Assembly (NCBI RefSeq): GCF_001642725.1
Contig: NZ_LSUQ01000005.1
Span: 62,001 to 118,532, forward strand
Length of the DNA: 56,532 bases
From: Ferroacidibacillus organovorans
GTDB lineage: Bacteria; Bacillota; Bacilli; Alicyclobacillales; SLC66
Reading direction: 5' to 3'
Below are positions 5,744 through 31,801 of the stretch, piece after piece. The position numbers and the translations under genes were made by a program. Every line of letters begins with the position of its first letter. The first letter of the stretch is position 1. Below the pieces are notes generated by a model. It had not been told where the DNA came from. It worked only from the letters and a program-made list of their open reading frames with translations, and did no database searches.

Positions 5744-5815
5744 TTGCTTTGTTTCCCAAAACCGACCATCACAATTGAGGGCAGGGAAAGACAAATTCAA
5801 ATCTGAGGTGACGAA

Positions 5816-6535: not shown

Positions 6536-6643
6536 TTCCTTGGTTTCGCGTGCTTCTAGTGTATCTGATTGGTGGCGGAAATCCACCCTGGGTTAGACGG
6601 CGCTCTTCCTATCGAAGGGGCAGGCGAAGGTATCCTCGGCTAT

Positions 6644-6679
6644 AAAAAATAAAAAAGGCACTCCTCGAAAGAGGAGTGC
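6644..6679 (-). terminator. Intrinsic terminator on minus strand with no upstream ORF (candidate sRNA end)
   Basis: GCACTCCTC-tttc-GAGGAGTGC stem followed by a long T-run on the minus strand. Confidence 0.7.
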
Positions 6680-6789
6680 AAGGATCTAGAGGGGGTAATC
6701 ATCAACGAGATTTAGCTTAGCAGTGAATGCTTGAAAGTACCTTTAACCTATTATTTTGTGCGATCAAATAGAATACGGCGTTTTTCATC

Positions 6790-6811
6790 TGAATATTATT
6801 CATAATATTCA
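6790..6811. promoter_or_regulatory. Palindromic operator upstream of acyl-CoA ligase
   Basis: TGAATATTAT-tc-ATAATATTCA, a perfect 10-bp inverted repeat 19 nt before the ATG. Confidence 0.6.
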
Positions 6812-6830
6812 ACCTAAACGGAGGAACGCC

Positions 6831-8495: not shown

Positions 8496-8592
8496 AAAGC
8501 CTAGGAGAATGGGTGAGCGCTGTGGCGAAGATTCAAACCTAGACAGGTGCGATCCGGTTAAACGCCGCACGGCTATCAACCGGATCATTTTT

Positions 8593-9336
8593 TCACATTT
8601 GGACTTTTGTGTCGATCCGGCGTTGCAACGCGACGGAACCGATAAGAAATAAGAGCGTCCACCCCAGCAGGACAAGGATGTCCGACGCTTGGATCGATTG
8701 GCCTGCGAGGATACGCCACGCGGGATGGGCATAATGGTAGGTAGGCGTCCATTTTGCGATGGTTTGCATGACGCTTGGCAACGCCTGAATGGGTGTCCAC
8801 AGCCCGCCTAGCATGGAGGCCACCAAGTACATCAGTGTTCCAAGCGGTTGCGCCGCGTTGCCGGTCAGTCCGATGAATACGCCGAGCGCGGCAAACGGCA
8901 GGGAACCGATCCAGAGCCACAGCGTAATCGTAAGCCACTCGCCGCCAGAGAGCGAGACGTTCTGAGAGAAGTGCGCGACGAGAAAGATGCAGAGAATGAT
9001 AAGAAGAGAGAGTGTCAATTGCGTCAAGATTTTCGCGATCGCGTATCCAAAAGATGAGAGCGGAGTCGTTCGCAAATAGCGGACCCAGCCGCTCTGCCGT
9101 TCTGCGGCTAAGCGTACGCCGAGCGTATTGATCGAAGAGCCGACGACGCCAAACGATGCCATGGAGACCATAAAGTAGTGACTCCAAAATGTCCCCGCAA
9201 TTCGCAGCGCGCCACCCTGTTGATTGATAAAGACGAAATAGAAGATGACAGGCATTCCGAGTGTGAGGAGAAAAAAGCGGCGATCACGCAATGTGCGTAT
9301 GAGCTCGTATTTCCAGTAGGTCAAGGTTGCTCTCAC
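8593..9336 (-). CDS. ABC-2 type transporter permease (YvfS-like)
   Basis: Six hydrophobic segments, ER..GW.RYLRTTPL motif; GTG start overlaps the ATPase stop (GTGA). Confidence 0.9.
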   Translation of the reverse strand: MRATLTYWKYELIRTLRDRRFFLLTLGMPVIFYFVFINQQGGALRIAGTFWSHYFMVSMASFGVVGSSINTLGVRLAAERQSGWVRYLRTTPLSSFGYAIAKILTQLTLSLLIILCIFLVAHFSQNVSLSGGEWLTITLWLWIGSLPFAALGVFIGLTGNAAQPLGTLMYLVASMLGGLWTPIQALPSVMQTIAKWTPTYHYAHPAWRILAGQSIQASDILVLLGWTLLFLIGSVALQRRIDTKVQM

Positions 9337-10238
9337 TGCGATTCGCCCCCTTCCGCGGTCAAGCGCACAAACGCGTCTTCCAAGCCCCCACCGTGCACCT
9401 GAATATCCCGGATATCCCACGCCTCGAGGATGAGTGTTTTTAGCAACGCGTCCGAATTCTGCGTGCGCACGGTCACCTGCCGACCCACCGTCTGCACGTC
9501 CGTCACATCAGGAAGCATCCTGAGTCGCTCGAAATCGATGTCCGGACCCGCGACAAAGGAGACGGTGCGTCCGCCGAATTGCATCTTGATCGACTCAGGC
9601 GGTGCGTCCGCAATCACAGCGCCATTCTGCATGACGACGATGCGGTCAGCGAGCATGTCAGCCTCTTGCAGATCGTGCGTGGTCAGCATCAATGTTTTGC
9701 CTGCGCGTAAAAATGAGCGTACCTCATCCCAGAACGTCCTGCGGGATGCCACATCCATGCCGACCGTCGGCTCATCAAGAAAGAGTACGTCTGGGTCGCC
9801 AGCTAAGGCAAGCGCGAACTGAAGTCGCCTCATCTTGCCGCCAGAGAGCTTTTGCGCCATCGTTTTTTGATCTTCTGTGAGCCCGCTCACCTGCAGCAGG
9901 CGATCTGTCGGCAGTGGCTTTGGATAGAATCCGCGAAACATATCGATCGTCTCGCGCACGCTGAGGCGCGGTGGGACACTGACTTCCTGTAGCATCACAC
10001 CGATACGCTCGTGGGACGTCGCGCTTTTGGGATCACCGCTAAACAGGCATACACGACCTGATGTGGGCTTTGTCAAACCGAGCATCATCGCGATGCTTGT
10101 TGTTTTTCCGGCGCCGTTTGGCCCGAGCAGCGCTACAGAATGTCCGCGCTCCATCGCAAAGCTCATCGAATGAACGGCGCGCTTCTTACCAAACACTTTT
10201 GATACGTTTTCCATCTCGATGACCGTCGACACGCACAT
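9333..10238 (-). CDS. ABC transporter ATP-binding protein (YvfR-like)
   Basis: Walker A GPNGAGKT, LSGG signature, LFLDEP Walker B. Confidence 0.96.
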   Translation of the reverse strand: MCVSTVIEMENVSKVFGKKRAVHSMSFAMERGHSVALLGPNGAGKTTSIAMMLGLTKPTSGRVCLFSGDPKSATSHERIGVMLQEVSVPPRLSVRETIDMFRGFYPKPLPTDRLLQVSGLTEDQKTMAQKLSGGKMRRLQFALALAGDPDVLFLDEPTVGMDVASRRTFWDEVRSFLRAGKTLMLTTHDLQEADMLADRIVVMQNGAVIADAPPESIKMQFGGRTVSFVAGPDIDFERLRMLPDVTDVQTVGRQVTVRTQNSDALLKTLILEAWDIRDIQVHGGGLEDAFVRLTAEGGESQ

Positions 10239-10318
10239 TCACTCCCGCGTTCTCAGACTTCCATTATGGTACAAGTGTAGCGTGCGCGCATGGATCGCGC
10301 ATCCATCTGCAGCGTGAA

Positions 10319-10350
10319 GAGGGTCCTCTATCTGCAGATAGAGGACCCTC
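10319..10350. repeat. Perfect 32-bp palindrome between response regulator and ABC ATPase
   Basis: GAGGGTCCTCTATCTG|CAGATAGAGGACCCTC is exactly self-complementary. Confidence 0.85.
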
Positions 10351-10374
10351 GCTGCGGGAGTATTAGCAGGGCTA

Positions 10375-11103
10375 TCAGCGGACGAGTCCGCAGCGCAGGG
10401 CGTAAACGACCGCCTGTGTTCGATCTTCTACATTCATTTTTTGCAGGATGCGGTGCACATGCGTTTTGACCGTCCCCTCGGAGATATAAAGCGTTGTGGC
10501 GATCTCTACGTTTCGTTTCCCGTAGGCCATCTGCTGCAAGACGTCGACCTCGCGCTCGGTCAAAGGCTCGGTAAGCGTCTCCTGCTGCGAATACACGGGT
10601 AGATTAACATCGTCCTTCCGTACAGATTCAGGCACAACGTCCTGCGCGGTATCGTGGAAAGATTGCCGAGAATGGGCCACCGCTTGCGAGATCATCTTCG
10701 CCGCAAAACAGGTGCGATATACGGCCTGACCGCTGTGTACTGCGCGAATCGCGTCAAACAGGTCGCTCGTACTCGCGTCTTTGAGGAGATAGCCGACGGC
10801 GCCAGCCCGAATGCCTTCAAAAACGTACGCTTCATCGTCAAATGTGGTGAGCAGAATGATCTTGATTGCAGGGGCGCTGTGCAGGATCGAGCGCGTGGCT
10901 TCGATTCCGGTCGCATTTGGCATCCGAATGTCCATCAAGATCACGTCGGGGCGCGTTTTTGCGGAGAGTGTGGCCGCCTCCTGCCCATCACACGCTTGCG
11001 CGACCACCTGGAAATCGGGTTGCGTGCTAAGGATATAGACAAATCCTTGGCGAATCAGCGCCTGGTCATCGGCGACAAGGATATGGATCGGACGGGTCGT
11101 CAT
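10375..11103 (-). CDS. NarL/LuxR-family response regulator
   Basis: ADD, LMDIRMP receiver motifs; LTEREVDVL...ISEGTVKTHV LuxR HTH. Confidence 0.96.
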   Translation of the reverse strand: MTTRPIHILVADDQALIRQGFVYILSTQPDFQVVAQACDGQEAATLSAKTRPDVILMDIRMPNATGIEATRSILHSAPAIKIILLTTFDDEAYVFEGIRAGAVGYLLKDASTSDLFDAIRAVHSGQAVYRTCFAAKMISQAVAHSRQSFHDTAQDVVPESVRKDDVNLPVYSQQETLTEPLTEREVDVLQQMAYGKRNVEIATTLYISEGTVKTHVHRILQKMNVEDRTQAVVYALRCGLVR

Positions 11104-12298
11104 AGCGATCTCCTTTCAAGCCAAGGGGATGGAGGGGGAGCGTTGCCTCAATGATCATGCCGTGCGGCTCATTTGCGCGAATGATAAGCGTACCACCCGC
11201 CTCTCGACTGCGTTCGCGCATCTGGGAGATGCCGTAACCGACGGGTGGATCGGCGTGCCGTGTGAAGATTCCGTCATCGACAACGCGCAGCGTTACTTGT
11301 TCATCTGCTTCTTCAACGCATACGGTCAATGTGGAGGTCTTTGCGTGTCGAACCGCATTCGTGAGCGCCTCTTGCAGGATGCGGTACAACGTTACACTGA
11401 CCGAGTTTGGCCATTCAACCTGTTTTGCGTCTGCGTGGAAGGTACTGGGGATGCCAGCGCGCGCTTCTGTCTGATGAACCAATCCGCGCAGCGCAGAGAG
11501 TCCTAGCTTTGTCTCATCCTTCGACCACGCAATCACTGCGCTCCGCACATCAGACATGGATTCGCGCGCGACACTCAGAAGTTCGGGAATCCGCGTTTTT
11601 GCGCCGTGCGGATCATCAGGCAGCATGAGATCGATTGCCTGAAGCGAGACGATCAGTGAGGTGAGCTGGTGACCGACACCGTCGTGAATGTCACGCGCGA
11701 TGTGCGCCCGCTCTGCGAGTGCGGCGGACTGCATCGCTTCGGCGGTTGCCGCTTGAAGCTCGTCGTGCGCGCGCTGCAGTTGTTGATGTGCCACTTCAAG
11801 CTCGGCGAGTCGGCGACGATCAAGTGTCCGCGCTTCGCGGCGCACGCGTCCGGCGTAGACACCAGCGTACGTCCCGATGAGCGGAAAGAGTACCTGCGGA
11901 GCGCTTTGCAGATCACGGCCAAGGCTGATGATACTCGCGGCGATCAGGCTGAGCAGAACTTGAATGGATTGGCGGCGAGAGAGGCGCGGAATGGCTGCGA
12001 CGGAGCCGGCCGGGATAATGAGCAGGTTTGAAAGAATCGGTTGCAGATGAAACAGGTTGACGGCGACAAGGCAGTAGACGGCTGAACCGTAGAGAAAGCC
12101 TAGGATGACGGGCATTGGTTTATAGCGTAGGGGGAGCCAAAGGAAAATTGCCCAGAGGATGATGTACGTATAGACCCACGGTCGCGCCGTAAGGGAACCC
12201 CAGTATTGAAGCCCGTAAATGGCGAAGATGATCAACATCGTTAGGGTGAGGCGCCTGAAGCGGCGTAGTTCGCTATTCGAAGGGGTAGGATGGCTCAA
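11066..12298 (-). CDS. Sensor histidine kinase (HisKA_3, DesK-like)
   Basis: Multi-TM N-terminus, ERAHIARDIHD H-box, QEALTNAVRHA N-box, DDG and GYGI motifs. Confidence 0.95.
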   Translation of the reverse strand: MSHPTPSNSELRRFRRLTLTMLIIFAIYGLQYWGSLTARPWVYTYIILWAIFLWLPLRYKPMPVILGFLYGSAVYCLVAVNLFHLQPILSNLLIIPAGSVAAIPRLSRRQSIQVLLSLIAASIISLGRDLQSAPQVLFPLIGTYAGVYAGRVRREARTLDRRRLAELEVAHQQLQRAHDELQAATAEAMQSAALAERAHIARDIHDGVGHQLTSLIVSLQAIDLMLPDDPHGAKTRIPELLSVARESMSDVRSAVIAWSKDETKLGLSALRGLVHQTEARAGIPSTFHADAKQVEWPNSVSVTLYRILQEALTNAVRHAKTSTLTVCVEEADEQVTLRVVDDGIFTRHADPPVGYGISQMRERSREAGGTLIIRANEPHGMIIEATLPLHPLGLKGDRYDDPSDPYPCRR

Positions 12299-12494
12299 GG
12301 GCTCCGTCTCCCGGTCTTAGATCGTCTCGTGTCGTCGTCATCGTACGCGATCGGAAAAGGAGTTGCAAGGGGAGCGGTTTGTTGTCGCCCTGCGCAAAAG
12401 GGAGGCTTCCTAAAGGAGCCTCCGAGAAGCGCGTTTTTCTTGTCTCGCGTCATGCGTGGCGAAGGGTCGGAAATGCGCGATGAAGGGGGGGCGA

Positions 12495-13475
12495 TCAGCG
12501 GAATCCGAGCACAGGGTGTGGCACGTAAGGCTCTTCCATGCGCGCAATCTCATCTGCTGTGAGTACGACGGAGAGCGCGGCGACTGCATCGTCCAGATGG
12601 TGCATTTTGGTCGCTCCGACGATCGGCGCGCTGACCGCTGACGTTTGCAGTACCCAGGCGAGCGCGACTTGCGCGCGGGGAATCTCCCGCTTTGCGGCGA
12701 CTTCGGCGACGCGCTCGACGACCTTTTTGTCGGCGTCAGCCGTGTCCGCATAGAGTGTCTTCCCAAACTCGTCAGTCTCTGAGCGCGCACTTTTTTCATC
12801 CCAGTCACGGGTGAGACGTCCACGCGCGAGCGGACTCCAGGGAATCACGCCGATGGATTCACTCTCGCAGAGCGGGAGCATCTCGCGCTCCTCTTCGCGG
12901 TAAAGCAGATTCACATAGTTTTGCATCGAGGCAAAGCGCGTCCAACCGTGTTTCTCAGACGTATGTAAGGCTTTGAGAAACTGCCACGCATACATGCTGG
13001 AGGCGCCGATATAGCGCGCTTTTCCCGCTTTGACTACATCGTGAAGCGCCTCCAGCGTCTCTTCGATCGGCGTTTGGTAATCCCAGCGGTGGATTTGATA
13101 GAGGTCGACATAATCGGTACCCAAGCGTGTTAAACTCTGATCGATCTCGCTCATGATCGCTTTGCGGGAAAGTCCCGCGCCATTCGGTCCCACGTGCATG
13201 CGCCCGTGCACTTTCGTCGCGATCACCACTTCGTCGCGTGTTGCAAAATCGCGGAGGGCGCGTCCAACAATCTCTTCGCTGGTGCCATCAGAGTAAACGT
13301 TTGCCGTATCGAAAAAGTTGATGCCGAGTTCTAAGGCGCGTTTGATAAAAGGGCGACTCTGCACTTCGTCGAGCACCCAGCGATGGTTGCCGCGTTCAGG
13401 GACGCCGTAACTCATGCAACCGAGGCAGATGCGGGAAACCTCAAGTCCTGTACGGCCAAGTTTCGTATACTCCAC
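12495..13475 (-). CDS. Aldo/keto reductase
   Basis: LGCMSYG, FFDTANVYS, IATK, DYVDLYQIHRWD, PWSPLARG motifs. Confidence 0.96.
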   Translation of the reverse strand: MEYTKLGRTGLEVSRICLGCMSYGVPERGNHRWVLDEVQSRPFIKRALELGINFFDTANVYSDGTSEEIVGRALRDFATRDEVVIATKVHGRMHVGPNGAGLSRKAIMSEIDQSLTRLGTDYVDLYQIHRWDYQTPIEETLEALHDVVKAGKARYIGASSMYAWQFLKALHTSEKHGWTRFASMQNYVNLLYREEEREMLPLCESESIGVIPWSPLARGRLTRDWDEKSARSETDEFGKTLYADTADADKKVVERVAEVAAKREIPRAQVALAWVLQTSAVSAPIVGATKMHHLDDAVAALSVVLTADEIARMEEPYVPHPVLGFR

Positions 13476-18560: not shown

Positions 18561-19181
18561 GTGCGTACATCGTTCGTGGATCACACATCGAATTTGACCG
18601 AAGTGAAGTTAACCGTTACAAAAGAAGATTTTCATAAACAAAATGGCCATCGGAGCACGGCGATCTGGTTGACGGGGTTGTCAGGGGCAGGCAAATCGAC
18701 CATCGCAACGGCGCTTGAGACAGAGCTATTTCGTCGCGGTATTCATACGTATCTATTAGACGGAGATAATGTGCGACTGGGGTTAAATCGAGACTTGGGT
18801 TTCTCAGAAGAAGATCGTCGCGAGAACATTCGACGTGTCGCCGAAGTATCGAAACTGTTTGTCGAGGCAGGGACGGTAGTGATCGTTGCGTTCATCTCAC
18901 CGTATCGCAACGACCGGGATGAGGCGCGCGCGCGGTTTGAAGAAGGTGAGTTTCTTGAAGTGTTTGTCGACTGCCCAATTGATGTGTGTGAAGAGCGAGA
19001 TCCTAAAGGTCTGTATAAAAAGGCCAAGGCGGGAACCATTCCGCAGTTTACGGGAATTTCTTCTCCTTATGAGCCGCCACTCCAACCGGAATTTCACTTG
19101 AGAACGGACTTGCACTCCCCCGAAGCGTGTGTCGCGTTGTTGGTCGAGGGGTTGCTTGAGCGCATCACGCCCCGCGCGTAG
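18561..19181 (+). CDS. cysC: Adenylyl-sulfate kinase
   Basis: [13 protein letters not shown]-loop, [32 protein letters not shown] motifs. Confidence 0.97.
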
Positions 19182-19266
19182 CAAAAGGGTCTCCGCGTGA
19201 CGATCAAAAAAGTGGATCGCATCGCTGTCGCGCGATGGTGGCGTGCGATCCCAACCTAGGAGCTTC

Positions 19267-20292
19267 ATGATGACAGCCAATCTGGATTATGAGACCGTCA
19301 AGTCAGTCCTTCGCTCGGAAAATCAGTTTATTCTCGTGACCCATCGTCGAGGAGATGCGGATTCGGCGAGCGCATTCGCGCTTGCTGAAGCGCTTCAGAT
19401 CATGGGGAAGCGCGTGGGGGTTCTCCATGATGTGCCAGGCTATCTTGAATGGCTCTTTGCACCGTATCGCGTGCAATCGCTGGATCGGACTCAACCGATC
19501 TGCTTTGTCGCACTCGATACGGGAAACTATGCGCGCCTTGCGCTGCCAGAAGAGATTCGCGCTAAGATAGAACAAATGATTCGCGAGGCAGGGCGAGAAG
19601 ACAAGGTGGAACGAGGCGCACTCCACGCGCTGCTTCCGTTTGATCTTGTCATTGATCACCACGCGTCCAATCCGGGGTACGGCCGCTGTAACTGGATTGA
19701 TCCAACAGCGAGCAGCACGTCTGAGTTGTTGACGATGCTCCTGCTCGATCTGGAACAAGAGACGAACCATACGCTCTTCACTGAAGCGATCTGTCAGAGT
19801 CTATTTGCGGGAATTGTATCTGATACGCAGTGGTTTTTGCGCGACACGACTGCGCGCACGTACGAGATGGCAGGCGTGCTTGAACAGCGCGCGACACTCG
19901 ACAAAGCGGATATCGCCGCGAATCTCTTGCAGCGTTCCCCTGCCTACGTGGAACTCGGCACCGTGCTTCGCAAAAACATGCGCGTGACAGGCGCTGTCGC
20001 GTGGTCATTTCTAGATTACGCCTCGATTCGCACGCTCGGCGCAGATGCAGAAGAAGCTGCGTTGCTGATTGAAGAGTTGGAGAAGATCCCATGTAAGATC
20101 GCCGTGCTCTTTGTCGAAGAGACCGTTGGCACGATTCGCGTTCGCCTGCGCGGCAAAGGAATACCTATTCTTGAACTGGCAAAACGTCACGGAGGCGGTG
20201 GACATTTGCGACGGGCCGGCGTAATGCTGAAAAATCGTCAAGAGGTCGCCCGCTTCATTGAAGACGCAGTAAAGGAGTCGAATCGCACGTGA
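19267..20292 (+). CDS. DHH/DHHA1 phosphoesterase (NrnA-like nanoRNase/pAp phosphatase)
   Basis: THRRGDAD, LDT, IDHH, GIVSDT and GGGGH motifs; stop overlaps the sulfotransferase start. Confidence 0.88.
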   Translation: MMTANLDYETVKSVLRSENQFILVTHRRGDADSASAFALAEALQIMGKRVGVLHDVPGYLEWLFAPYRVQSLDRTQPICFVALDTGNYARLALPEEIRAKIEQMIREAGREDKVERGALHALLPFDLVIDHHASNPGYGRCNWIDPTASSTSELLTMLLLDLEQETNHTLFTEAICQSLFAGIVSDTQWFLRDTTARTYEMAGVLEQRATLDKADIAANLLQRSPAYVELGTVLRKNMRVTGAVAWSFLDYASIRTLGADAEEAALLIEELEKIPCKIAVLFVEETVGTIRVRLRGKGIPILELAKRHGGGGHLRRAGVMLKNRQEVARFIEDAVKESNRT

Positions 20293-21185
20293 TTCCAAAT
20301 TTTTTGATCGTCGGTGCCGCCAAATCAGGAACGAGTTCCCTTGATCGCTACTTGGCGCAACACCCTGAGGTATACATCCCAACGAAAAAAGAAGCGCATT
20401 TTTATTCCATCCAAGATTTCCCGAAAAGGTTTACGGGGCCTGGCGATGAAGGCATGAATGAAGAGACGATTCGCAATCGCGCTGATTACGAGGCGCTGTT
20501 TAAAGCGCGCACGGATGAACCTGCGGTGGGTGAGTCGTCCGTTTTTTATCTCTACTATAAAGGAACGGCTGCACGAATCTATGCGGATAATCCAGACATG
20601 AAGATCATCATGGTGCTGCGCGAGCCTGTTGCGCGAGCGTACTCAGCATATATGCATTTGATTCGCGATGCGCGTGAGACGCTTACATTTGAGGAGAGTC
20701 TTGCCGCTGAAGAAGAGCGAAAGAAAAATGGGTTTGAGCCGATGTGGCTGTATCGAGATCTCGGCCGCTACAGCGAACAGGTTGAGCGCTATGTGGACGT
20801 GTTTGGCGCAGAGCGAGTTCACGTCATGCTTTTTGATGAGTTTACAAAACGGAGCGAGCACTTCGTACGCGGTGCGTTCCGTTTCTTAGGTGTCGATGAG
20901 CAAGCAACGGTTGACACGCAACTCCATCACAATGAGTCGGGTGTGCCGCGGTCACGCGCCGCGTTTGACTTTATATCAAAGCCGCACCCTCTCAAAGAGT
21001 TGGTCAAGCCATTCATTCCATCGAGTGTTCGCGAGCGGTTAGGAAATCGTGCGAAATCCATGTTGCTCGAACGCACCTCCATGCTGCCGGAGACGCGTAG
21101 AGAACTGGCTGCGTACTTCGCACCAGATCTCGTGAAACTTGAGAAGATTCTTCATCGCGATCTCTCTCACTGGAAGAAATCGTAG
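20289..21185 (+). CDS. PAPS-dependent sulfotransferase
   Basis: 5'-PSB loop GAAKSGTSSL, KEAHFY, 3'-PB motif LREPVARAYS. Confidence 0.93.
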   Translation: MIPNFLIVGAAKSGTSSLDRYLAQHPEVYIPTKKEAHFYSIQDFPKRFTGPGDEGMNEETIRNRADYEALFKARTDEPAVGESSVFYLYYKGTAARIYADNPDMKIIMVLREPVARAYSAYMHLIRDARETLTFEESLAAEEERKKNGFEPMWLYRDLGRYSEQVERYVDVFGAERVHVMLFDEFTKRSEHFVRGAFRFLGVDEQATVDTQLHHNESGVPRSRAAFDFISKPHPLKELVKPFIPSSVRERLGNRAKSMLLERTSMLPETRRELAAYFAPDLVKLEKILHRDLSHWKKS

Positions 21186-21221
21186 CGTAGAGACGGCCAA
21201 TTGGAGCGGTGGAGGGTAAAC

Positions 21222-22409
21222 GTGAAACGAGTCCTGATGGTTTCTTATTTTGCGCCTCCGACCCTAAACGCGGAAGCGATCCTCGTCTGGAAAACGCTGC
21301 GCGTGTTGTCGCAGCTTCACCGGATTACACTTGTCACAAACGCGCCGCAGTGTAAGCAGGGGGACCCTGATATGCGCATACCACCGGGTGTGGACGTGCG
21401 TGCGCATGGCGGTGTGACATTCCGCTCGGCGTTTGCAAACAAAGTGGCAGAGCGGTTGACGGGAAAACTCGACGATGAAAATCTGCTGTGGGCGCTGCGC
21501 GTCCCCCAGGTTAAAAAAGGCGATTTTGACGTACTCTACAGTCGCTCGCATCCAGGTGCAAGCCACATTCTGGCGGCCTCGCTCTGGAAGCGCACGCAGT
21601 TGCCGTGGATCGCTCAGTTCAGTGATCCGTGGTCGGCGAATCCCTACCATTCCCACCACACCATCATTCGGAAGCTGCGCGACCAGGAGCACGAACGATT
21701 TGTCATCGCGCATGCGGATCAACTCATCTTTCCGACCGTTGAAATCCAGGAAATCTACGAAAAGGCGTATCCTTTGCAAGCGATCAACGCCCGGTCGGTG
21801 GTCTTGCCCCATCACGTCTCAGAAGAGCTCTACAGCGTGAGAAATGCGAGCGTTCCGACGGAAGCCGGCAAGATGCTCCTGTCCTATTTTGGCGATTTCT
21901 ATGGCTTGCGCTCACCCGCGCCGCTGTTTGACGCGTTGCGGCACATTCACGCGCGAAACCCGGACAAGCTTGCGCGTGTCGAGATTGGCCTTTTTGGAAA
22001 CCTCGAGAAAAAGTTTGTCCCTCTTCTGGAGCAGGTGCCCGTCCGCATTCATCGCGGCCGCTATACGTATCTTGAGAGCCTGTCTGCAATGAGAAAGAGC
22101 CACGGTCTGTTGCTGATTGATGCGCCAAACGACACAGGAGTAAACCCGTTTCTCGCCTCAAAGTTGATCGACTACATTGGCGCTAAACGACCGATTCTTG
22201 GCGTCACCGAGGAACGCGGCACGGCGGCAAATTTCTTGCGTCAGGGTGGGCAGTATGTCGCGGCGCCCCGCGCGGTGGACAAAATTGCGTACGGGCTGGA
22301 ACAATTGATCGATTCAGCAAAGGTGACAGCAAGAATGGAGCGTCTGGCCGCAGCGTTTACATCAGAGAGGATCGTGGGTGAACTCGCGCAATGGTTGGAC
22401 AAGCAATAG
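21222..22409 (+). CDS. Glycosyltransferase, GT-B (family 4-like)
   Basis: MKRVLMVSYFAPP N-terminus, PWIAQFSDPW, SKLIDYIGAKRPIL C-terminal motif. Confidence 0.8.
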   Translation: MKRVLMVSYFAPPTLNAEAILVWKTLRVLSQLHRITLVTNAPQCKQGDPDMRIPPGVDVRAHGGVTFRSAFANKVAERLTGKLDDENLLWALRVPQVKKGDFDVLYSRSHPGASHILAASLWKRTQLPWIAQFSDPWSANPYHSHHTIIRKLRDQEHERFVIAHADQLIFPTVEIQEIYEKAYPLQAINARSVVLPHHVSEELYSVRNASVPTEAGKMLLSYFGDFYGLRSPAPLFDALRHIHARNPDKLARVEIGLFGNLEKKFVPLLEQVPVRIHRGRYTYLESLSAMRKSHGLLLIDAPNDTGVNPFLASKLIDYIGAKRPILGVTEERGTAANFLRQGGQYVAAPRAVDKIAYGLEQLIDSAKVTARMERLAAAFTSERIVGELAQWLDKQ

Positions 22410-22417
22410 ACAGCGCG

Positions 22418-22455
22418 ACGATGCGCCTGGCGAAAACCTCCAGGCGCATCGTTTT
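22418..22455. terminator. Hairpin between convergent sulfation and cytochrome b operons
   Basis: ACGATGCGCCTGG...CCAGGCGCATCGT followed by ttt. Confidence 0.7.
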
Positions 22456-22476
22456 GTGCAGGATAGCATGCTCGAT

Positions 22477-22701
22477 TCAGGAGATGCGTTGGGCTTTTGT
22501 GATGCGGTTTTTCCGGTAGAATTGCCGAGCGGACGCCCACAGATTGCCAGTCATCCAGATGCCGACGAGCAGCGTTGGCAAGCCGTAGATGAGTGTGTAA
22601 GGTTTGTCGCTTGTGATGCCGCTGTATACAAGTGATGTTCCGTAAACGCCGGCGATCAGTGACAAGAGCCAAATGAACCACAACCGAATACCCATGTTCA
22701 T
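22477..22701 (-). CDS. Small two-TM membrane protein
   Basis: 74 aa, two hydrophobic helices, basic C-tail, GAGGGGG RBS; last gene of the cytochrome b operon. Confidence 0.75.
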   Translation of the reverse strand: MNMGIRLWFIWLLSLIAGVYGTSLVYSGITSDKPYTLIYGLPTLLVGIWMTGNLWASARQFYRKNRITKAQRIS

Positions 22702-22728
22702 ATCAACTTCCCCCTCATTGGTTTACCC

Positions 22729-23814
22729 TCACGCATTCCCATTTCGAGACTGATAGCAGTTGGGCAATTCGCCCGCGAGCACGCCGCCCTTTTTCCCGCG
22801 AAACTCTTGACTGCACGAATCTCTGAGCGGGCAATTTGCACACGCATTTTGTTTTGACAGACCGCGATACCAGTCACGCCAGATCAACCGATGAACTGGG
22901 AGCACTTTCGGGAGCTTATTAAGCCCCGGAACCCAAGGTACAAGCACTAAGAGCGTAAAGAGAATGCCAATGGTGTAGGCGGCCATCTCATCGCCAGATG
23001 CGGACGTTGAGTACGGTGGAATCTGATACAAGAAGGTGTACGGTGTCAGCCACCATGGGCCGGGAAGCGCTGTCTCATCGTGATTGATGCCCCACTGATT
23101 GCCCTGCATATTGATCGTGTTGGCAATGTTGTGCAGGGTTGTACCTTGCAGGAACAACAGGTCGCCGCTTACGTCATAGCGGTAGACGCCGCCGTTCGTT
23201 TGGCGGTCGAGCGCACCTGAGAGAAGCCCAGATTTGGCGAGTTGCAACTCAGAATTCATCATGAGTGCCACGGGGCCATAATTGCCGAATGGCGTGACGA
23301 CGGCACCTTTAGAAACGGTCGCTTTATTGAGTGCATTGCTGTAATTTGTATCCCACTTTTGTTGCTGTGCGTAGGATGCGTTCTGATACTGTTGCAGCGC
23401 TTGGCTCAGTTTGTTGTTGGAAGAAGCTGTTGCCAGCATCTGCAGGGGTGCCATGATGTCGTTTTGTGCGGTATTCCAGTGATAGGGGGTCCCCCACCAG
23501 GTCTGAGGCGAGAAGCCCATGATCGATTGAATGGATTGCGCCTGACCGTGCCAACCGTGATTGTAAGGAGGGCCATAGCTTGCAATGGAACCTGTACCTG
23601 ACAGATCGCCGATGGCCGTCTGCTCGATGATTAAGGGAGAACCTAGTGCAATCTGTTGATTTGTGACGGCCGGGCGATACGGCGCGCCGAAGATGGCAGA
23701 AGCGCCAACAATCAGGACACCGATGATCCCGAGGCTGATGACACCCTCCTTGACCATGTCAAAGTCGCGTTGTGGAAAGCGCAAGGTGTCGCGTGTGAAT
23801 CGATCTTTTTTCAT
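22729..23814 (-). CDS. Cytochrome b6 subunit-IV-like membrane protein with large extracytoplasmic domain and Cys-rich tail
   Basis: N-terminal DMVKE-TM helix, about 200-aa N/Q/S/T/G-rich region, PGPWWLTPYTFLYQIPP (PEWY-equivalent position), TM helix ending VPWVP, tail CANCPLRDSC...C; ATGA overlap with the cytochrome b gene. Confidence 0.7.
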   Translation of the reverse strand: MKKDRFTRDTLRFPQRDFDMVKEGVISLGIIGVLIVGASAIFGAPYRPAVTNQQIALGSPLIIEQTAIGDLSGTGSIASYGPPYNHGWHGQAQSIQSIMGFSPQTWWGTPYHWNTAQNDIMAPLQMLATASSNNKLSQALQQYQNASYAQQQKWDTNYSNALNKATVSKGAVVTPFGNYGPVALMMNSELQLAKSGLLSGALDRQTNGGVYRYDVSGDLLFLQGTTLHNIANTINMQGNQWGINHDETALPGPWWLTPYTFLYQIPPYSTSASGDEMAAYTIGILFTLLVLVPWVPGLNKLPKVLPVHRLIWRDWYRGLSKQNACANCPLRDSCSQEFRGKKGGVLAGELPNCYQSRNGNA

Positions 23815-24425
23815 GCGTGCTCATCTCGCTTCTTTGCAGAAATCGAATAGGGTGGAACCACACCTTTGCTTCGCACGGCTAAGAGATGGATGCTGACGAG
23901 CCCGATAAGAATGGCAGGAAACACCGCGATGTGGAGGCCATAGACCTGCCCGTTGTTTAAGATGTTGAGAAATCCGTCGAGCCCTGCACCGTTAAACGCG
24001 TCCTTACTTTGAACCTGATTCCATTGTGAGAAAAAATCGCCCCTTGAGAGATACCCGGTGAACGCTTCAATAACCGATACGGCGAAGGAGAGCGCGCCAA
24101 CAACCCATGTGAGCGCGCGACCTTCGCGCCAGGATCCCATAAAGAACTGTCCAACGAGGTGCATCGTAGTAAAGAAGAAGAATGCCTGAACGCTCCAGTA
24201 GTGAACGCTTCGCAGAAACTCGCCGAGGCTTGAGGTCTGGTACCAGAGTGGACCTTTAGCCGACATGATGATTCCGCTTGCGATGCAAAAGACAAGACTG
24301 CTGAGTGTGAAGACGCCGAAGCTGTAGACGAGAGAGTTCACGTAGACGGGTTGTTCAGACGGCAACAAGTTATCCCAGGTAAGCTTTTCCGTTGCGGATT
24401 TGCGAAGTGATTTTGTCCAGTTCAC
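23811..24425 (-). CDS. Cytochrome b N-terminal (b6-type) di-heme protein
   Basis: RSVHYWSVQAFFFFTTMHL (H-x13-H), YGLHIAVFPAILIGLVSIHL (H-x14-H), R.LTWVVG and AFTGYL motifs. Confidence 0.92.
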   Translation of the reverse strand: MNWTKSLRKSATEKLTWDNLLPSEQPVYVNSLVYSFGVFTLSSLVFCIASGIIMSAKGPLWYQTSSLGEFLRSVHYWSVQAFFFFTTMHLVGQFFMGSWREGRALTWVVGALSFAVSVIEAFTGYLSRGDFFSQWNQVQSKDAFNGAGLDGFLNILNNGQVYGLHIAVFPAILIGLVSIHLLAVRSKGVVPPYSISAKKRDEHA

Positions 24426-24544
24426 GAACGATCACCGCGTTTCCCGTGTGGATACGTAAAGAGTGCGAAACTCGCAAACACGATGAGCCAGATGACACCG
24501 ACATAGATGTTCGGCCATGCATTCGATGTGTTAATCACCGTCAA
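24422..24544 (-). CDS. 40-aa single-TM peptide (not in ORF track)
   Basis: TTG start after AGAAAGGCAGGCGG; MTVINTSNAWPNIYVGVIWLIVFASFALFTYPHGKRGDRS*; stop overlaps the cytochrome b GTG start (GTGA). Confidence 0.65.
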   Translation of the reverse strand: MTVINTSNAWPNIYVGVIWLIVFASFALFTYPHGKRGDRS

Positions 24545-24787
24545 CCGCCTGCCTTTCTCTTATGGCTCTAGCATACGATCTGCGGCGAAAGGTGTTGAGA
24601 CCCGATCGAGTGTTCTTTTCCGCGAATTGGAGCTATTTGTGCATAGTCGGAATGGACCAGGGGAAACGACATTCTACCATTGACATGCTAGAATCTCAGG
24701 ACTAGCATGAGGGTACATCATCCTCCATCGCGAATGCCCCAAAAATTTCCCGTGCTTGATTGGCGAACGCATTCGTCTTTGGATGAC

Positions 24788-25924
24788 ATGGAGGTGAGTC
24801 AAGTCACGCTATCGATTATTGTTCCGACTTATAATGAGTTAGATAATCCAAAACGCTTAATAAATGAAATAATGCGTTATCTTCCTGATGGAACGTTTGA
24901 AGTGATCTTTGTCGATGACAGTTCAGATGAGCGATCGATCGAGTGGCTTAATGCTTTGTGTAAAACGTATCCTTTCGTGCGTCTGTTTCATCGCGTGCAG
25001 GAGCGCGGTCTCGGCAGTGCGGTCGTGCGCGGATTGGAACTTGCTTGCGGTGAATGGATCGCAGTGATGGATGCCGATCTGCAGCATCCGGCGAGTGTGC
25101 TCCCCGAGATGATGCGTGCGCTTTCAGCCGGATATGACGTGGTTATCCCGAGCCGCTTTGTCCCTGGAGGAAGTGACGGAGGGCTCTCGCTCCCGCGCAA
25201 GTGGATTTCTTTTACGGCGCGGTTGATCGGTCGTTTGGCGCTCAAGCGGCTGCGCAAGGTGTCCGATCCGACGAGTGGCTTTTTTATGATGAAGCGCGCC
25301 GTGATCGAAGGTGTTGCGCTGCGCCCCGTCGGGTGGAAGATTCTCATCGAAATTCTCGCGCGAGGGTCATACACGCGCATCCTAGAGATTCCGTACACGT
25401 TTGAGGCGCGCGCGTTTTGTGAGTCGAAAATGTCGCTCTACGAGCAGTGGAACTATCTCCGTCATCTCGGGCGCTTGATTCTTGACAGCCCTGAGGAAAG
25501 AAGAGTCTACCTCTTTGCGCTCGTTGGCGCATCAGGCGTTTTTGTCAATGAACTGTTCTATGACGTGCTGATTCATCTCCAAGTAGCGCTTTGGATAGCA
25601 GGCATGCTATCTGGCTTTATCGCGATGGTAACCAATTTTGTTCTCAATGATCGATTAACGTGGGTGGACGCGCGCGCGGGACAAGCGCATCGTCGTTTTC
25701 TCAAATATGTGATCACATCCTTGATTGGCATCGCGATCAGCACCGTAGTGCTCTCCTTTCTTGCGTATGGGGAGCGGGTGAACTCGCTCTATGCTAACGG
25801 GGCGGGAATCGCCGTCGCGACGGTCTGGAACTTCTACATCAACAATTTTTGGACGTGGAGAAAAAAGCATCGCGTTGTCGATATCGTCATTTCTTCGGTA
25901 GGCACGAGTACAGAGATTCGTTAG
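24788..25924 (+). CDS. GT2 polyprenol-phosphate mannose synthase-like (DPM1) fused to GtrA flippase-like domain
   Basis: SIIVPTYNE, FVDDSS, MDADLQHP, SDPTSGFF motifs, then four-TM GtrA segment (FALVGASG...NFVLNDRLTW...WNFYINNFWTW); start uncertain. Confidence 0.88.
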   Translation: MEVSQVTLSIIVPTYNELDNPKRLINEIMRYLPDGTFEVIFVDDSSDERSIEWLNALCKTYPFVRLFHRVQERGLGSAVVRGLELACGEWIAVMDADLQHPASVLPEMMRALSAGYDVVIPSRFVPGGSDGGLSLPRKWISFTARLIGRLALKRLRKVSDPTSGFFMMKRAVIEGVALRPVGWKILIEILARGSYTRILEIPYTFEARAFCESKMSLYEQWNYLRHLGRLILDSPEERRVYLFALVGASGVFVNELFYDVLIHLQVALWIAGMLSGFIAMVTNFVLNDRLTWVDARAGQAHRRFLKYVITSLIGIAISTVVLSFLAYGERVNSLYANGAGIAVATVWNFYINNFWTWRKKHRVVDIVISSVGTSTEIR

Positions 25925-25935
25925 GGGGATAGGTC

Positions 25936-27303
25936 GTGCAACTGATTCTTTTATCTGGTGGTTCAGGAAAGCGTTTGTGGCCGCTCTCCAATGACGTCCG
26001 CTCAAAGCAATTTCTGCGCGTGTTAGAGGGGCATGATCAGAATCTCGTGTCGATGGTTGAACGCGTTTGGGGGCAACTCTCTGCGCTTAGGATGGACGGT
26101 TCGACCTATTTGTGCGCATCAAAGCTGCAGAAGGATCTGATCCACGCTCAACTGGGGGATGTCAGCGTCATCGTTGAACCGATGCGCATGGATACATTTC
26201 CGGCGATTGCCCTCGCGACAACCTATTTGGCGGATCAGGTTGAGGAAGATGACATCCTCGTCGTGGCGCCTGTGGATCAGTTTGTTGAAACGGGTTATTT
26301 TGAGCACTTAAAACGTCTTCCAGAGGTGCTCGTCGCATCTGGCTCGGAGATGGCCTTACTCGGTGTCAAGCCAACGCATCCATCGACACAATATGGGTAC
26401 ATATGTGTGGAACAGGAACGTGCGGCGGGATCATCCTATGCGCGTGTATCGTCGTTTCGCGAAAAACCGGAGCGAGCGCGTGCACTGGAGTGGATCGAAC
26501 AGGGTGCGCTGTGGAATTGCGGGGTATTCTGCTTTCGTAAATCGTATCTGATGCGCTTGCTTTCGGAGCGCGGTCTTCCGATTCACTATCGCGAGATGGT
26601 TGCGACGTTTCACGAAATGCCAAAGCGCAGCTTTGATTATGAAGTGGTCGAACAGACGGAAAAAATTGTCGTCGTACCGTACGATGGCGCATGGAAAGAT
26701 CTTGGGACATGGGAGACGCTTGCGCCGGAGATGCGCTCTTCCTTTCTTGGAATTGGTGTGGCGGACGATTGCGAAAACTCCCATGTTGTCAACGAGCTCT
26801 CCATTCCGATTGTCGCAAAAGGGTTAAAGAATTTGATGGTTGTGGCGAGTCCAGATGGGATCCTGGTGGCCGCGAAAGACCAGAGTGGTGGGATCAAAGA
26901 TCTCGTTGCCCCTTATTGCATCCGTCCCATGTTTGAGGAGCGGCGATGGGGATCTTACAAAGTGCTGGATTATCAGAAACTCCCTGACGGGAATGAGGTT
27001 TTAACAAAACAGGTCACGCTGCGCGCCGGCGCGAATATTAGTTACCATCGACACCATCTCCGAGAAGAGGTGTGGACGATGGTAGCTGGGGATGCTGTTC
27101 TAGCGCTGGACGGTAGAATGGTCAGCATTACGGCGGGGGATGTCTTTCGCGTTTGTCGCGGTCAGTGGCATGGCATCATGGCGAAGACGCAGGTTATTTT
27201 TGTCGAAGTGCAACGCGGGGAGACAATCACGGAAGAGGATTGTGACCGTCGCTTTATGGAGTGGGAGCATGTCATTGAACACTGTGAAGTTCTCGAACGG
27301 TAG
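25936..27303 (+). CDS. manC: Mannose-1-phosphate guanylyltransferase / mannose-6-phosphate isomerase (cupin)
   Basis: LSGGSGKRLWPLS..SKQF, FREKP, WNCG, WKDLGTW, then ERRWGSY and SYHRHHLREEVW cupin. Confidence 0.9.
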   Translation: MQLILLSGGSGKRLWPLSNDVRSKQFLRVLEGHDQNLVSMVERVWGQLSALRMDGSTYLCASKLQKDLIHAQLGDVSVIVEPMRMDTFPAIALATTYLADQVEEDDILVVAPVDQFVETGYFEHLKRLPEVLVASGSEMALLGVKPTHPSTQYGYICVEQERAAGSSYARVSSFREKPERARALEWIEQGALWNCGVFCFRKSYLMRLLSERGLPIHYREMVATFHEMPKRSFDYEVVEQTEKIVVVPYDGAWKDLGTWETLAPEMRSSFLGIGVADDCENSHVVNELSIPIVAKGLKNLMVVASPDGILVAAKDQSGGIKDLVAPYCIRPMFEERRWGSYKVLDYQKLPDGNEVLTKQVTLRAGANISYHRHHLREEVWTMVAGDAVLALDGRMVSITAGDVFRVCRGQWHGIMAKTQVIFVEVQRGETITEEDCDRRFMEWEHVIEHCEVLER

Positions 27304-30073: not shown

Positions 30074-31420
30074 TTAGAAGAGTTTTGGCATGACGACCGA
30101 TAGTCCGTACACAGCGTTCAATCCAACCAAAAGTGCCACAATCACGACGGCCGAAACGTTTTGCCACTTGCGGTTGACGTGAGCCCCCATAATGTGTCGA
30201 TCGTTCAGCAGGAGCACTAAGAAGAGCAGCGCGGCTGGCATAAAGATCGACGCGATCACCTGCACTGTCAGGTTGAGAAAACCGAGCGGCGCATTCGGAA
30301 TCAAAACGATGCTTGCGGCAAGAACTGCGCTGAGGATGCCCGGCAAATAAAACTTCCACGCGCGCCGCGCCGGCATGTTGATGCTTTTTGGCCAGTGAAA
30401 CGCTTCGCCCATCGCCCACGATGTGCTTGCCGTCAGCGCGATCATCGAGATGGTGCCCGCTTCGACCATTCCCAGTGCAAAGAGGGTTTCTCCCGTATTC
30501 CCCAAACGCTGTCCGATCACAGTGAGAATTTGTTGGATGCTCAGATTGGAAGCACCGTTCATTCCGTGGACAACCGTTCCTGTCAGGATTACGAGCGCGA
30601 GTGCAACGGCGACCATGGCGACGGTTCCTACTGCAGTATCCATCTGGCCGTGGCGGATATCCTTCACGGTCAATCCCTTGTCGACGACCGCTGACTGTTG
30701 GAAAAACAGCATCCACGGAGCAATCGTCGTTCCGAAGTTTGCGAGGATGATAAAAACGAACGCCGGCGTGAAGCCGCCAGGAACCTGCCAGTGGGCAAAC
30801 GCGTCGGCGACCACCGACCAGTGTGGGTGCGCCATGAACGCCAGTGGAATAAAAATGAGGTTGCCTGCCGCGATCCAGAGCGAGACGCGCTCCCAAGTGT
30901 AGTAGCGCAGTACAAGCAGCACCACGGCGTCAAGCGAAATGGCAAGCAGGGCGCTCAGCCAGTGCGGTACGCCAAACACGGAGAGTCCGAGCGTAATGCC
31001 GATAAATTCAGTAATCAGCGTGAGAATGTTGGCAAGGACAAGATCGACGAGTGAGAACCAACCCCAGAAAGCGCCGTAGCGTCCCCAGATCAGTTCAGCG
31101 TGACCGCGGCGTGTCACTGCGCCGAGGCGAACGGTCATCTCTTGCACGATGTACGCGATGATGCCTGACAGAATGAGTGCGGGGATGAAGAATCCGATGC
31201 CGTAGGTTGCGCCGGTTTGGGAATAGGTGATCACACCGCCGGCGTCGTTGTCTGCGATCATCACGAGGACGCCGGGGCCAATCAAGACGTAACCAAGTAA
31301 AATTCTTGAGAGCCATCCACGTTTTTGGCGGAGTGTGTCAATTCGAGCTTGGTCTTTCGCGCGGATCGCTGCATCTTCGGAGTCAATGGAACGTACGTAA
31401 ACAGCTTGTTGTTGGATCAT
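30074..31420 (-). CDS. NRAMP-related divalent cation (probably Mg2+) transporter
   Basis: GPG..MIADNDAGG.TYSQ.GA, QEMTVRLG, GTTIAPW motifs (not the canonical DPGN); AAAGGAGG RBS before ATG 31420; M-box upstream. Confidence 0.92.
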   Translation of the reverse strand: MIQQQAVYVRSIDSEDAAIRAKDQARIDTLRQKRGWLSRILLGYVLIGPGVLVMIADNDAGGVITYSQTGATYGIGFFIPALILSGIIAYIVQEMTVRLGAVTRRGHAELIWGRYGAFWGWFSLVDLVLANILTLITEFIGITLGLSVFGVPHWLSALLAISLDAVVLLVLRYYTWERVSLWIAAGNLIFIPLAFMAHPHWSVVADAFAHWQVPGGFTPAFVFIILANFGTTIAPWMLFFQQSAVVDKGLTVKDIRHGQMDTAVGTVAMVAVALALVILTGTVVHGMNGASNLSIQQILTVIGQRLGNTGETLFALGMVEAGTISMIALTASTSWAMGEAFHWPKSINMPARRAWKFYLPGILSAVLAASIVLIPNAPLGFLNLTVQVIASIFMPAALLFLVLLLNDRHIMGAHVNRKWQNVSAVVIVALLVGLNAVYGLSVVMPKLF

Positions 31421-31442
31421 GGCAGAGATCCTCCTTTCTGGG

Positions 31443-31529
31443 TTAACGGGCATGGCAAAACGATGCAAAGCATTGTTGCTGAATTTGAAGCTGATTTTGT
31501 AAATCGCCTATACTAGGACCGCTTTCCAT
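31443..31529 (-). CDS. 28-aa ORF between M-box terminator and transporter (not in ORF track)
   Basis: GGGAGGTGA RBS; MESGPSIGDLQNQLQIQQQCFASFCHAR*; stop just before the transporter RBS. Confidence 0.5.
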   Translation of the reverse strand: MESGPSIGDLQNQLQIQQQCFASFCHAR

Positions 31530-31610: not shown

Positions 31611-31627
31611 CACGGGAATATACCGCG

Positions 31628-31787
31628 CATCCCCCTTGTTGAGCTTTAGCACTATGCGTCGTAGAGTTTTCACTCAGCCACATTAAGTAAAGCCTTAGTC
31701 CGGCAATACCTGTTCAACCCATTGGCGTCTCTCGACGTTTCCGGGCAGTGGCGTGTTTCCGCATAGAAGCCTCGCCTAACGAGGATT
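31628..31787 (-). ncRNA. M-box (ykoK) Mg2+ riboswitch
   Basis: Minus strand CTCGTTAGGCGAGGCTTCT...GCCACTGCCCGGAAACGTCGAGAGACGCCAATGGGTTGAACAGG...TAAGGC...GTGCTAAAGCTCAAC matches the ykoK consensus; upstream of a Mg transporter. Confidence 0.95.
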
Positions 31788-31801
31788 CGACTCTCAATTG
31801 T

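Follow-up and report, generated by a model that had tools for sequence, protein, structure and literature searches.

Cytochrome b is treated as the core of Rieske/cytochrome b complexes in the available portions of two surveys (PMC5600118, PMC3509893), the first of which sorts the protein into subfamilies A-N. The locus described here lies in a 56,532-nucleotide (nt) stretch of DNA from Ferroacidibacillus organovorans (NZ_LSUQ01000005.1, positions 62,001-118,532), called the window below, and all coordinates are window positions. Four minus-strand open reading frames (ORFs) encode proteins of 40, 204, 361 and 74 amino acids (aa): a small subunit (p40), a b6-type cytochrome b with two predicted haem sites, a second subunit (the partner) and a small membrane subunit (p74). 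The original prediction had described these genes as an operon with GTGA and ATGA overlaps. The ORFs were confirmed at the same positions and the junction sequences bear the description out: the p40 stop and cytochrome b start overlap by 4 nt in GTGA, and the cytochrome b stop and partner start by 4 nt in ATGA. The operon appears to represent a branch, not described so far, of a respiratory enzyme family known from textbooks, and we regard it as an even call whether the four genes make up one self-contained, Rieske-independent cytochrome b complex that moves electrons across the membrane.

In its split gene order, cytochrome b and then a second subunit, the locus resembles the b6f complex and the Bacillus-type menaquinol:cytochrome c reductase (QcrB/QcrC). 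The cytochrome b itself is like b6 and QcrB in being a four-helix protein of about 200 aa with H-x13-H and H-x14-H motifs; the NCBIfam 'cytochrome b6' model finds it at E 8.4e-15, but with 55 bits against a cut-off of 325. Unlike these complexes, the locus offers no Cys of the CxGG motif, and neither the operon nor the window contains a gene for a Rieske protein or for cytochrome c/f. The best PDB matches, in sequence and in fold, are the long cytochromes b of bc1 and of actinobacterial bcc complexes (QcrB), with the NCBIfam model bc1_QcrB_actin reaching 47 bits against a cut-off of 500. Some relatives of the pair are fused proteins (554-674 aa), which, like the long cytochromes b, join a b6 part to a subunit IV part. 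They differ from them in having six or seven predicted helices and a large outer insertion, and in being without Rieske or cytochrome c1 neighbours.

The best NCBIfam model for the 204-aa protein, NF040969 (E 1.6e-18), represents ExtP of the Geobacter extHIJKLMNOPQS cluster, a short b6-like cytochrome b outside bc1 and b6f; at 67.3 bits, against a cut-off of 290, the protein is not an ExtP equivalog. In the available part of its description, ExtP has as neighbours ExtO, which is a Rieske protein, ExtQ, a membrane protein of 16.8 kDa, and several multihaem cytochromes c (PMC5877670). None of these neighbours is present at this operon. The cyanobacterial cytochrome b subfamily K, as far as the available text of the survey describes it, is short, without CxGG, additional to the canonical complex and of a function called obscure; the haem-ligand His of helix 2 is replaced, and most members are without a subunit IV of their own (PMC5600118). 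The cytochrome b of this locus, in contrast, keeps all four His and has a dedicated partner. Escherichia coli cytochrome b561 (CybB) is an example of the stand-alone di-haem four-helix cytochromes b, which connect the quinone pool with a small substrate on the outer side and do so without FeS or c-type partners. It can be compared in working principle only: by sequence it is another family, without a second subunit or an outer domain, and its Pfam model PF01292 stays below threshold (27.1 bits, cut-off 30.1).

Has the pair been described already? Nothing that matches it stands among the forms in the available portions of the two surveys (PMC5600118, PMC3509893), and the available supplement text of the first contains no Alicyclobacillus, Aaci, Sulfobacillus, Thermaerobacter or Kyrpidia (PMC5600118). 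Full-text literature searches returned no paper on the family, in agreement with the proposal that the complex is uncharacterised; the family may sit unnamed in published cytochrome b trees.

Cytochrome b and its partner protein

The 204-aa protein (positions 23811-24425, minus strand, GTG start) has four predicted transmembrane helices. It matches Pfam PF13631 (Cytochrom_B_N_2) with 56.6 bits against a cut-off of 27, and PF00033 (Cytochrome_B) with 35.8 bits against 27.2. A profile of 26 family members aligns with the canonical long cytochromes b at 99.1% probability in hhalign (E 1.2e-18, 168 columns), and the PDB sequence matches of the protein are all cytochrome b or b6. In NCBIfam, the cut-offs of the best models, those for ExtP, cytochrome b6 and actinobacterial QcrB, are missed by a wide margin, and the protein is therefore not the equivalog of any named protein.

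Histidines 75, 89, 165 and 180 provide the H-x13-H and H-x14-H motifs, the second having the b6-type spacing on helix D. They are kept in 79, 79, 78 and 78, respectively, of 79 aligned relatives from many phyla, so that the four haem histidines of the original prediction are borne out, and the haem-packing Gly37 and Gly51 of helix A are kept in all 79. Residues 34-38 read YSFGV, with Ser35 where b6 has the haem ci Cys of CxGG. The claim that this Cys is absent also holds for at least 76 of the 79 relatives, in which position 35 is taken by one of the five commonest residues, S, L, M, F and T. Loops on both membrane faces carry the invariant residues W99, R100, R103, Q134, W135, Q139, K141 and N145. 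By its sequence, the 204-aa protein is thus a b6-type four-helix cytochrome b with both bis-His sites and without the ci Cys. Its haem binding is predicted from the conserved ligands, and the invariance of the loop residues across phyla points to a conserved redox function with sites on both sides of the membrane.

The 361-aa partner (positions 22729-23814, minus strand, ATG start) is a different matter. It has no significant family match in Pfam or NCBIfam, but 517 and 573 relatives were found at E<=0.001 in two protein collections, some of them with the source label 'cytochrome B6'. A hydropathy scan shows two transmembrane segments, TM1 (residues 18-46) and TM2 (276-299), with ends rich in Lys and Arg, which should place the intervening stretch of roughly 230 residues on the outside. 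The predicted topology, inferred in this way, is an inner N-terminus and TM1, an outer domain, a Trp-rich loop, TM2 and a cytoplasmic tail. An AlphaFold2 model of the protein is mostly helical, with a mean confidence score (pLDDT) of 80.9.

The outer (P-side) domain consists of residues 47-250 (positions 23065-23676, minus strand). It is mostly alpha-helical, with pLDDT of 91-98 across residues 111-200, and 18 of its 204 residues (8.8%) are charged, which agrees with the low-charge extracytoplasmic domain of about 200 aa described before; its outward position follows from the predicted topology. The residues conserved across 65 partner sequences are mainly Pro, Gly, Trp and Tyr, with a few Gln and Asp, and the outer domain is without any Cys, His or Met that is invariant, or close to it, in these sequences. 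Therefore, a redox cofactor held by the domain itself appears unlikely. In a Foldseek search of the PDB, the model of the 361-aa protein had no match at E<=0.001 (best E 2.6), and the partner profile found nothing under E 1.3 among PDB sequences. The ESM Atlas returned only unannotated clusters for the whole 361-aa protein (0.81-0.82) and no usable named match for residues 47-250. The profile and structure searches that had been suggested for both subunits thus identified the cytochrome b, and gave no significant Pfam, NCBIfam or PDB match for the partner.

Directly after the outer domain stands the PGPWW motif (residues 251-255, positions 23050-23064, minus strand), which opens the conserved stretch PGPWWLTPYTFLYQIPP and is the proposed equivalent of PEWY in the ef loop. 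The partner has no PxWY of the PEWY type at this place, and the absence of the Glu, noted before, is confirmed: P251 and W255 are invariant and G252 is present in at least 90% of the 65 partner sequences, and the counterparts in distant members read PGQAW, PGQPW or PGLPW, also without Glu. Asp19 and Lys22, ahead of TM1, are nearly invariant. The cytoplasmic tail carries Cys325, 328, 334 and 353 in the arrangement C-x2-C-P-x4-C ... C (positions 22756-22842, minus strand). This four-Cys tail is found in 28 of the 120 best partner matches (P0001-P0028, all with at least 61% identity) and in none of the 92 others; the median Cys count over the 120 is 0. The tail region has pLDDT of 56-63. It constitutes a candidate inner-side metal site.

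Is the partner a subunit IV? It is like subunit IV in its opening transmembrane helix and in the Pro/Trp-rich outer loop ahead of the next helix. It is unlike subunit IV in having two predicted transmembrane helices and not three, in about 200 extra outer residues whose fold has no PDB match, in PGPWW as against PEWY or PDWY, and in finding no match to PF00032 (Cytochrom_B_C), which none of 65 family members matches even at E<=10. The hhalign placements are weak. Partner residues 8-41 (the region before TM1, and TM1) fall on the start of helix E at 7.1% (E 0.0051), and residues 245-310 on PKPEW..FLFLYQ and the next helix of canonical cytochrome b at 8.5% (E 0.0039); against a single canonical sequence the PGPWW/TM2 region has a probability of 0.8% only. 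The probabilities overall range from 0.8 to 8.5%, the matches being collinear with helix E, the ef loop and helix F, and in an internal control the outer domain alone gave 0.27% against canonical cytochrome b.

Gene pairing and gene fusion are the stronger argument for a subunit IV role. Scanning species genomes yielded 511 loci; 80 were retained, and the locus counts given here refer to these 80. In 78 of them the partner gene is immediately preceded by the cytochrome b gene, which is partial or split in three of these cases. Of the other two, one (L065) is cut by a contig end and one (L010) truly lacks the gene. In L010 the partner gene occupies positions 8001-8987, the whole 12.6-kb locus is without a cytochrome b gene, and a second, weak partner-like fragment is present at 7116-7229. 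In other members the two proteins form one chain, namely P0124 (554 aa), P0129 (639 aa) and 83 fused proteins of 633-674 aa that have only cytochrome b N-terminal Pfam domains and no additional domain. A model of the fused P0124 (pLDDT 85.5, predicted TM-score 0.81) gave 56 Foldseek matches in the PDB at E<=0.001, and all among the matches listed are cytochrome b or b6. On b6 chains it superposes with TM-scores of 0.66-0.69 and a root-mean-square deviation (rmsd) of 4.3-4.8 Å; on long cytochromes b, 446-577 columns are aligned with TM-scores of 0.35-0.51 and an rmsd near 20 Å.

The 361-aa protein is thus the obligate partner of the cytochrome b, either adjoining it or fused into one chain with it. 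It stands in the place of subunit IV and is probably a diverged homologue of it. What remains of the subunit-IV-like label in the original prediction are the collinear profile placements of 2-9%, the gene order and the fusions; the PF00032 result (0 of 65) speaks against it.

Distribution, small subunits and gene neighbourhood

The cytochrome b/partner family is old and broad. The 80 loci fall in at least nine phyla, including Chloroflexota, Pseudomonadota, Spirochaetota, Actinomycetota, Gemmatimonadota, Ignavibacteriota and Calditrichota. On a tree of 83 partner proteins the phylum labels change 9 times, where the minimum is 8 and the mean for shuffled labels is 26.1. This spread over phyla, together with a tree that follows them, argues against an acidophile-specific or iron-specific role. 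The partner of the window falls in a clade that comprises 27 rows and has full support; closest to it are three Bacillota bins, followed by Sulfoacidibacillus thermotolerans. A single genome or bin of the Alicyclobacillaceae can hold as many as three paralogous pairs. Two loci (L001, positions 4361-8845, and L018, positions 7187-12628) each have two paralogous pairs that are convergent, tail to tail, and their second pairs belong to another branch of the family tree.

The two small proteins are real genes, kept as proteins in syntenic positions, and they belong to the module in the Bacillota-dominated branch. p40 (positions 24422-24544, minus strand, TTG start) has one transmembrane segment by hydropathy (residues 9-33), as was proposed. 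Its 17 homologues share the invariant residues N8, W10, N12, L20, F23, F26, Y31 and P32, in a NAWPN...YP pattern. p74 (positions 22477-22701, minus strand, ATG start) had been described as a two-transmembrane protein; it has two hydrophobic segments, but only one exceeds the hydropathy threshold, the second stretch reaching it in several homologues. Its C-terminus is basic, and W11, G18, G21, L37, G52 and A58 are invariant in 19 homologues. Neither protein has a Pfam family, and p40 also has none in NCBIfam; a Pfam scan of the 19 p74 homologues gave chance-level matches only. In 34 of the 80 loci the p40 profile has a match immediately before the cytochrome b gene, mostly with a 4-nt overlap, and in 38 the p74 profile has one immediately after the partner gene, with second copies in L001 and L018. 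These profiles were built from 16 and 18 of the detected loci, respectively, and only the remaining detections are independent.

Neither small gene occurs outside the Bacillota-dominated half of the family tree. A clade that includes two loci labelled Colwellbacteria has a different protein with two transmembrane segments (119-142 aa) in third position in five loci, and the loci of Pseudomonadota, Spirochaetota and most Chloroflexota have the pair only. The fused forms P0129 and P0387-P0468 carry an N-terminal extension of about 100 residues with one transmembrane helix. The p40 profile had no match at E<=0.01 among 468 collected proteins, and in hhalign it aligned with this extension at 5.1% (E 0.0077), a weak lead. 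On this similarity, p40, cytochrome b and partner may be joined in one chain in the fused-form lineages. The p74 profile shows no likeness to canonical cytochrome b, including the C-terminal helices (probability 0.17%).

Apart from the pair, no gene is conserved around the 80 loci. The operon and the 56.5-kb window contain no Rieske or CxxCH gene: among window frames of at least 60 aa from stop to stop there are one CxxCH and one Rieske-like motif, both antisense to identified genes. Within 6 kb of the pair, the 80 loci have 21 ORFs with CxxCH and seven with a Rieske motif. Of these, 17 were scanned with Pfam, and only those of two loci (L043 and L071) were validated. ORFs upstream of cytochrome b in L071 and L061 were considered as Rieske or cytochrome c genes and were rejected, having no Pfam match.

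The possibility that homologues usually sit beside Rieske or cytochrome c genes, which would point to a split canonical complex, is not borne out, and what had been said of the operon holds for the window and, as to validated Rieske genes within 6 kb, for 79 of the 80 loci. The single validated Rieske gene beside a pair is accompanied by its own canonical cytochrome b. In this locus, from a Calditrichaceae bin (L043, positions 7376-11403), the Rieske gene starts 14 nt after the pair and is followed by a long cytochrome b fused to c-type domains; all the genes are on one strand, and no other of the 80 loci has such a link. L071 has cbb3 oxidase subunits about 5.6 kb from the pair. Real c-type cytochromes within 6 kb are found only in L043 and L071, and in neither are they part of the pair.

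Predicted operon signals and the surrounding window

The partner gene and the p74 gene are separated by a 27-nt spacer with a purine-rich stretch ahead of the p74 start. About 125 nt upstream of the first ORF lies a promoter-like site, CTGAGA-17-TAGAAT with a TG (positions 24671-24699, minus strand), with 9 of 12 consensus matches. A consensus scan of the region found four sites where shuffled sequence would give 1.9, which makes the promoter evidence weak. At the other end, a 13-bp stem-loop (positions 22418-22452, minus strand) lies between the operon and a convergent gene at 21201-22409. The RNA fold of 22405-22476 has a free energy of -29.7 kcal/mol (z = -3.26; 2 of 200 shuffles as stable). 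The stem-loop is without a U-run, and for this reason was missed by a simple terminator scan; judged by sequence and fold it is likely the terminator of the cytochrome b operon. Rfam has no RNA family in 22350-24760 at E<=1.

Plus-strand genes on either side of the cytochrome b operon appear to form one sulfated-glycan envelope cluster, which the operon, on the opposite strand, splits in two. At positions 18561-22409 they encode an APS kinase, a DHH/DHHA1 phosphoesterase and a sulfotransferase, as well as a 402-aa protein without a Pfam family; at positions 24707-27303 there are genes for a GT2-GtrA glycosyltransferase and for a protein like mannose-1-phosphate guanylyltransferase. Further along, an M-box (magnesium) riboswitch (RF00380, 154 bits; positions 31625-31790, minus strand) lies directly upstream of an Nramp-family gene (30074-31468, minus strand), which suggests a magnesium-controlled expression of the transporter. 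There is also a cluster of four tRNA genes (3223-3545, plus strand) and a single tRNA gene (50266-50339, plus strand).

Proposed electron path and competing explanations

How might such a complex work? The 361-aa protein would be a strongly diverged counterpart of subunit IV, with TM1 as helix E, the PGPWW loop as the ef loop and TM2 as helix F, and with a new helical domain of about 200 residues inserted on the outer face. The domain would lie at the place where the Rieske head usually docks, a placement that we infer. Electrons would cross the membrane via the two b haems. At the inner end, a putative quinone (Qi-like) site might be retained, because b6-like motifs are present at the N- and C-termini of the cytochrome b and Asp19 and Lys22 precede TM1 of the partner. 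At the outer end, the conserved cd loop and the Trp-rich loop could form a putative pocket capped by the outer domain. As there would be no Rieske centre or high-potential one-electron acceptor, a bifurcated Q-cycle would not be expected, and the complex would thus be a simple, quinone-linked electron wire across the membrane, with a logic comparable to that of the stand-alone di-haem cytochromes b. It would be a general bacterial device, neither acidophile-specific nor iron-specific, and there may be a lineage-specific adaptation in Alicyclobacillaceae.

Several observations weigh against the proposal of a self-contained, Rieske-independent complex. A Rieske protein may be encoded elsewhere in the genome, outside the window. 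The gene order of the Calditrichaceae locus (pair, Rieske, cytochrome b/c) could mean cooperation with a canonical complex. With no PF00032 match among 65 members and hhalign probabilities of 0.8-8.5%, the assignment to subunit IV is statistically not established, and with an rmsd of about 20 Å on long cytochromes b, likeness beyond the b6 half is not proven. Two loci (L034, L035) and the protein P0102 are labelled Candidatus Colwellbacteria or Patescibacteria. Such organisms are generally not expected to have quinones, and these loci, if the bins are clean, would speak against a quinone-linked role.

The operon could belong to an ordinary Rieske/cytochrome b complex that has an odd subunit IV, a normal Q-cycle, and a Rieske protein and c-type cytochrome encoded elsewhere. 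The available portions of the surveys report haloarchaea and anammox bacteria in which the Rieske gene has a separate locus (PMC3509893, PMC5600118), the Rieske gene 14 nt after the pair in L043 is suggestive, and the evidence on Rieske genes in this genome covers the window. Such a split complex is nevertheless unlikely: a Rieske gene adjoins one locus in 80 and stands there with a complete long cytochrome b/c of its own, the PEWY equivalent is without Glu and the cd loop is family-specific, and the fused long forms carry no additional domain. By the predicted topology, moreover, the domain of about 200 residues would occupy the outer face where the Rieske head would dock, and the paralogous pairs also speak against it, of which a genome or bin may have as many as three, and which in L001 and L018 lie back to back.

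The surroundings of some loci bring to mind instead a redox sensor of the quinone pool or the outer medium, reporting to two-component or cyclic-nucleotide signalling neighbours. The nearest gene on one side belongs to the response-regulator/kinase cluster of proteins in 14 of the 80 loci, GGDEF proteins are nearby in eight, and all 16 signalling neighbours that were checked have kinase, receiver, PAS, GAF or HD domains; the four-Cys cytoplasmic tail of the closest clade could be an output or a switch. Yet these neighbours are of unrelated architectures (HisKA, HisKA_2, HisKA_3, PAS, GAF, Cache) with no single conserved partner, the 14 loci include several that are close relatives of each other, and 14 in 80 is a raw count. 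The window operon has no adjoining signalling gene, the nearest kinase/regulator pair being about 10 kb off (10375-12298), and neither core protein has a recognisable output domain in Pfam or NCBIfam. The sensor, already named as an alternative in the original prediction, is kept as a lead, an improbable one.

That prediction had named Fe(II)/Fe(III) and sulfur species as examples of an outside redox partner in an acidophile. As a specialised conduit to such extracellular species, the complex would fit some of its closest named relatives, the Alicyclobacillaceae Sulfoacidibacillus ferrooxidans, Fodinisporobacter ferrooxydans and Alicyclobacillus ferrooxydans, whose names imply iron oxidation; in the available part of its description, Fodinisporobacter oxidises ferrous iron and has menaquinone-7 (MK-7) as sole quinone (PMC11123200). 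The paralogues are multiplied in Alicyclobacillaceae genomes, and the four-Cys tail is confined to the iron-oxidiser clade, but the tail is cytoplasmic by the predicted topology. Two loci (L002, L008) have near the pair a VIT-family iron transporter (VIT1, confirmed by Pfam), SQR-like and rhodanese-fused flavoproteins and 2-oxoacid:ferredoxin oxidoreductase genes, L002 additionally a radical-SAM gene, and further members of the VIT-family protein cluster occur in L003 and L005. These four loci, however, are close relatives and differ in surroundings from the window, with its sulfation and glycosyl-transfer genes. The family's spread over at least nine phyla, along phylum boundaries, and an outer domain without conserved Cys, His or Met that could bind a metal or cofactor make the iron or sulfur conduit quite unlikely.

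There is, finally, a very small chance that the haems are structural or cargo and the role non-respiratory, for example the handling of haem or a hydrophobic molecule via the Trp-rich outer loop. The stretch QWGI-H-DE...PGPWW recalls the Trp-rich loops of haem-handling proteins, a likeness of composition only, and no redox partner is conserved nearby. Against this stand the four bis-His ligands and both glycines, kept as in electron-transfer cytochromes b, and the lack of similarity to haem-handling families in Pfam and NCBIfam.

The self-contained, Rieske-independent complex can be extended to a broader proposal, which we hold tentatively, as possible and somewhat short of probable. The family would represent, beside bc1 and b6f, a third and ancient kind of cytochrome b complex that has neither a Rieske centre nor a c haem, and whose remodelled Qo pocket lies under a domain of new fold in place of the Rieske head. 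Electrons would pass across the membrane between quinones and an outer substrate without bifurcation and possibly reversibly. The four-Cys metal site and the two small subunits would have been gained in the iron-oxidising Alicyclobacillaceae clade, where they may add an inner-side entry for electrons.

That the operon and the family are beyond chance is evident from the Pfam score of the cytochrome b (56.6 bits against 27), the 517 and 573 relatives of the partner and the conserved small ORFs. A sizeable protein family without a Pfam model, and a domain without a solved relative, are thus associated with cytochrome b, which is among the best-studied membrane redox proteins. If the proposal is true, a widespread clade keeps both haems and has swapped the Rieske partner for a cofactor-less domain without a known fold. 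The di-haem core could then serve a different reaction, and the family would be a natural test case for a Qo pocket without bifurcation. It would also mean that this gene pair is mislabelled 'cytochrome b6' in genome-based reconstructions of respiration.

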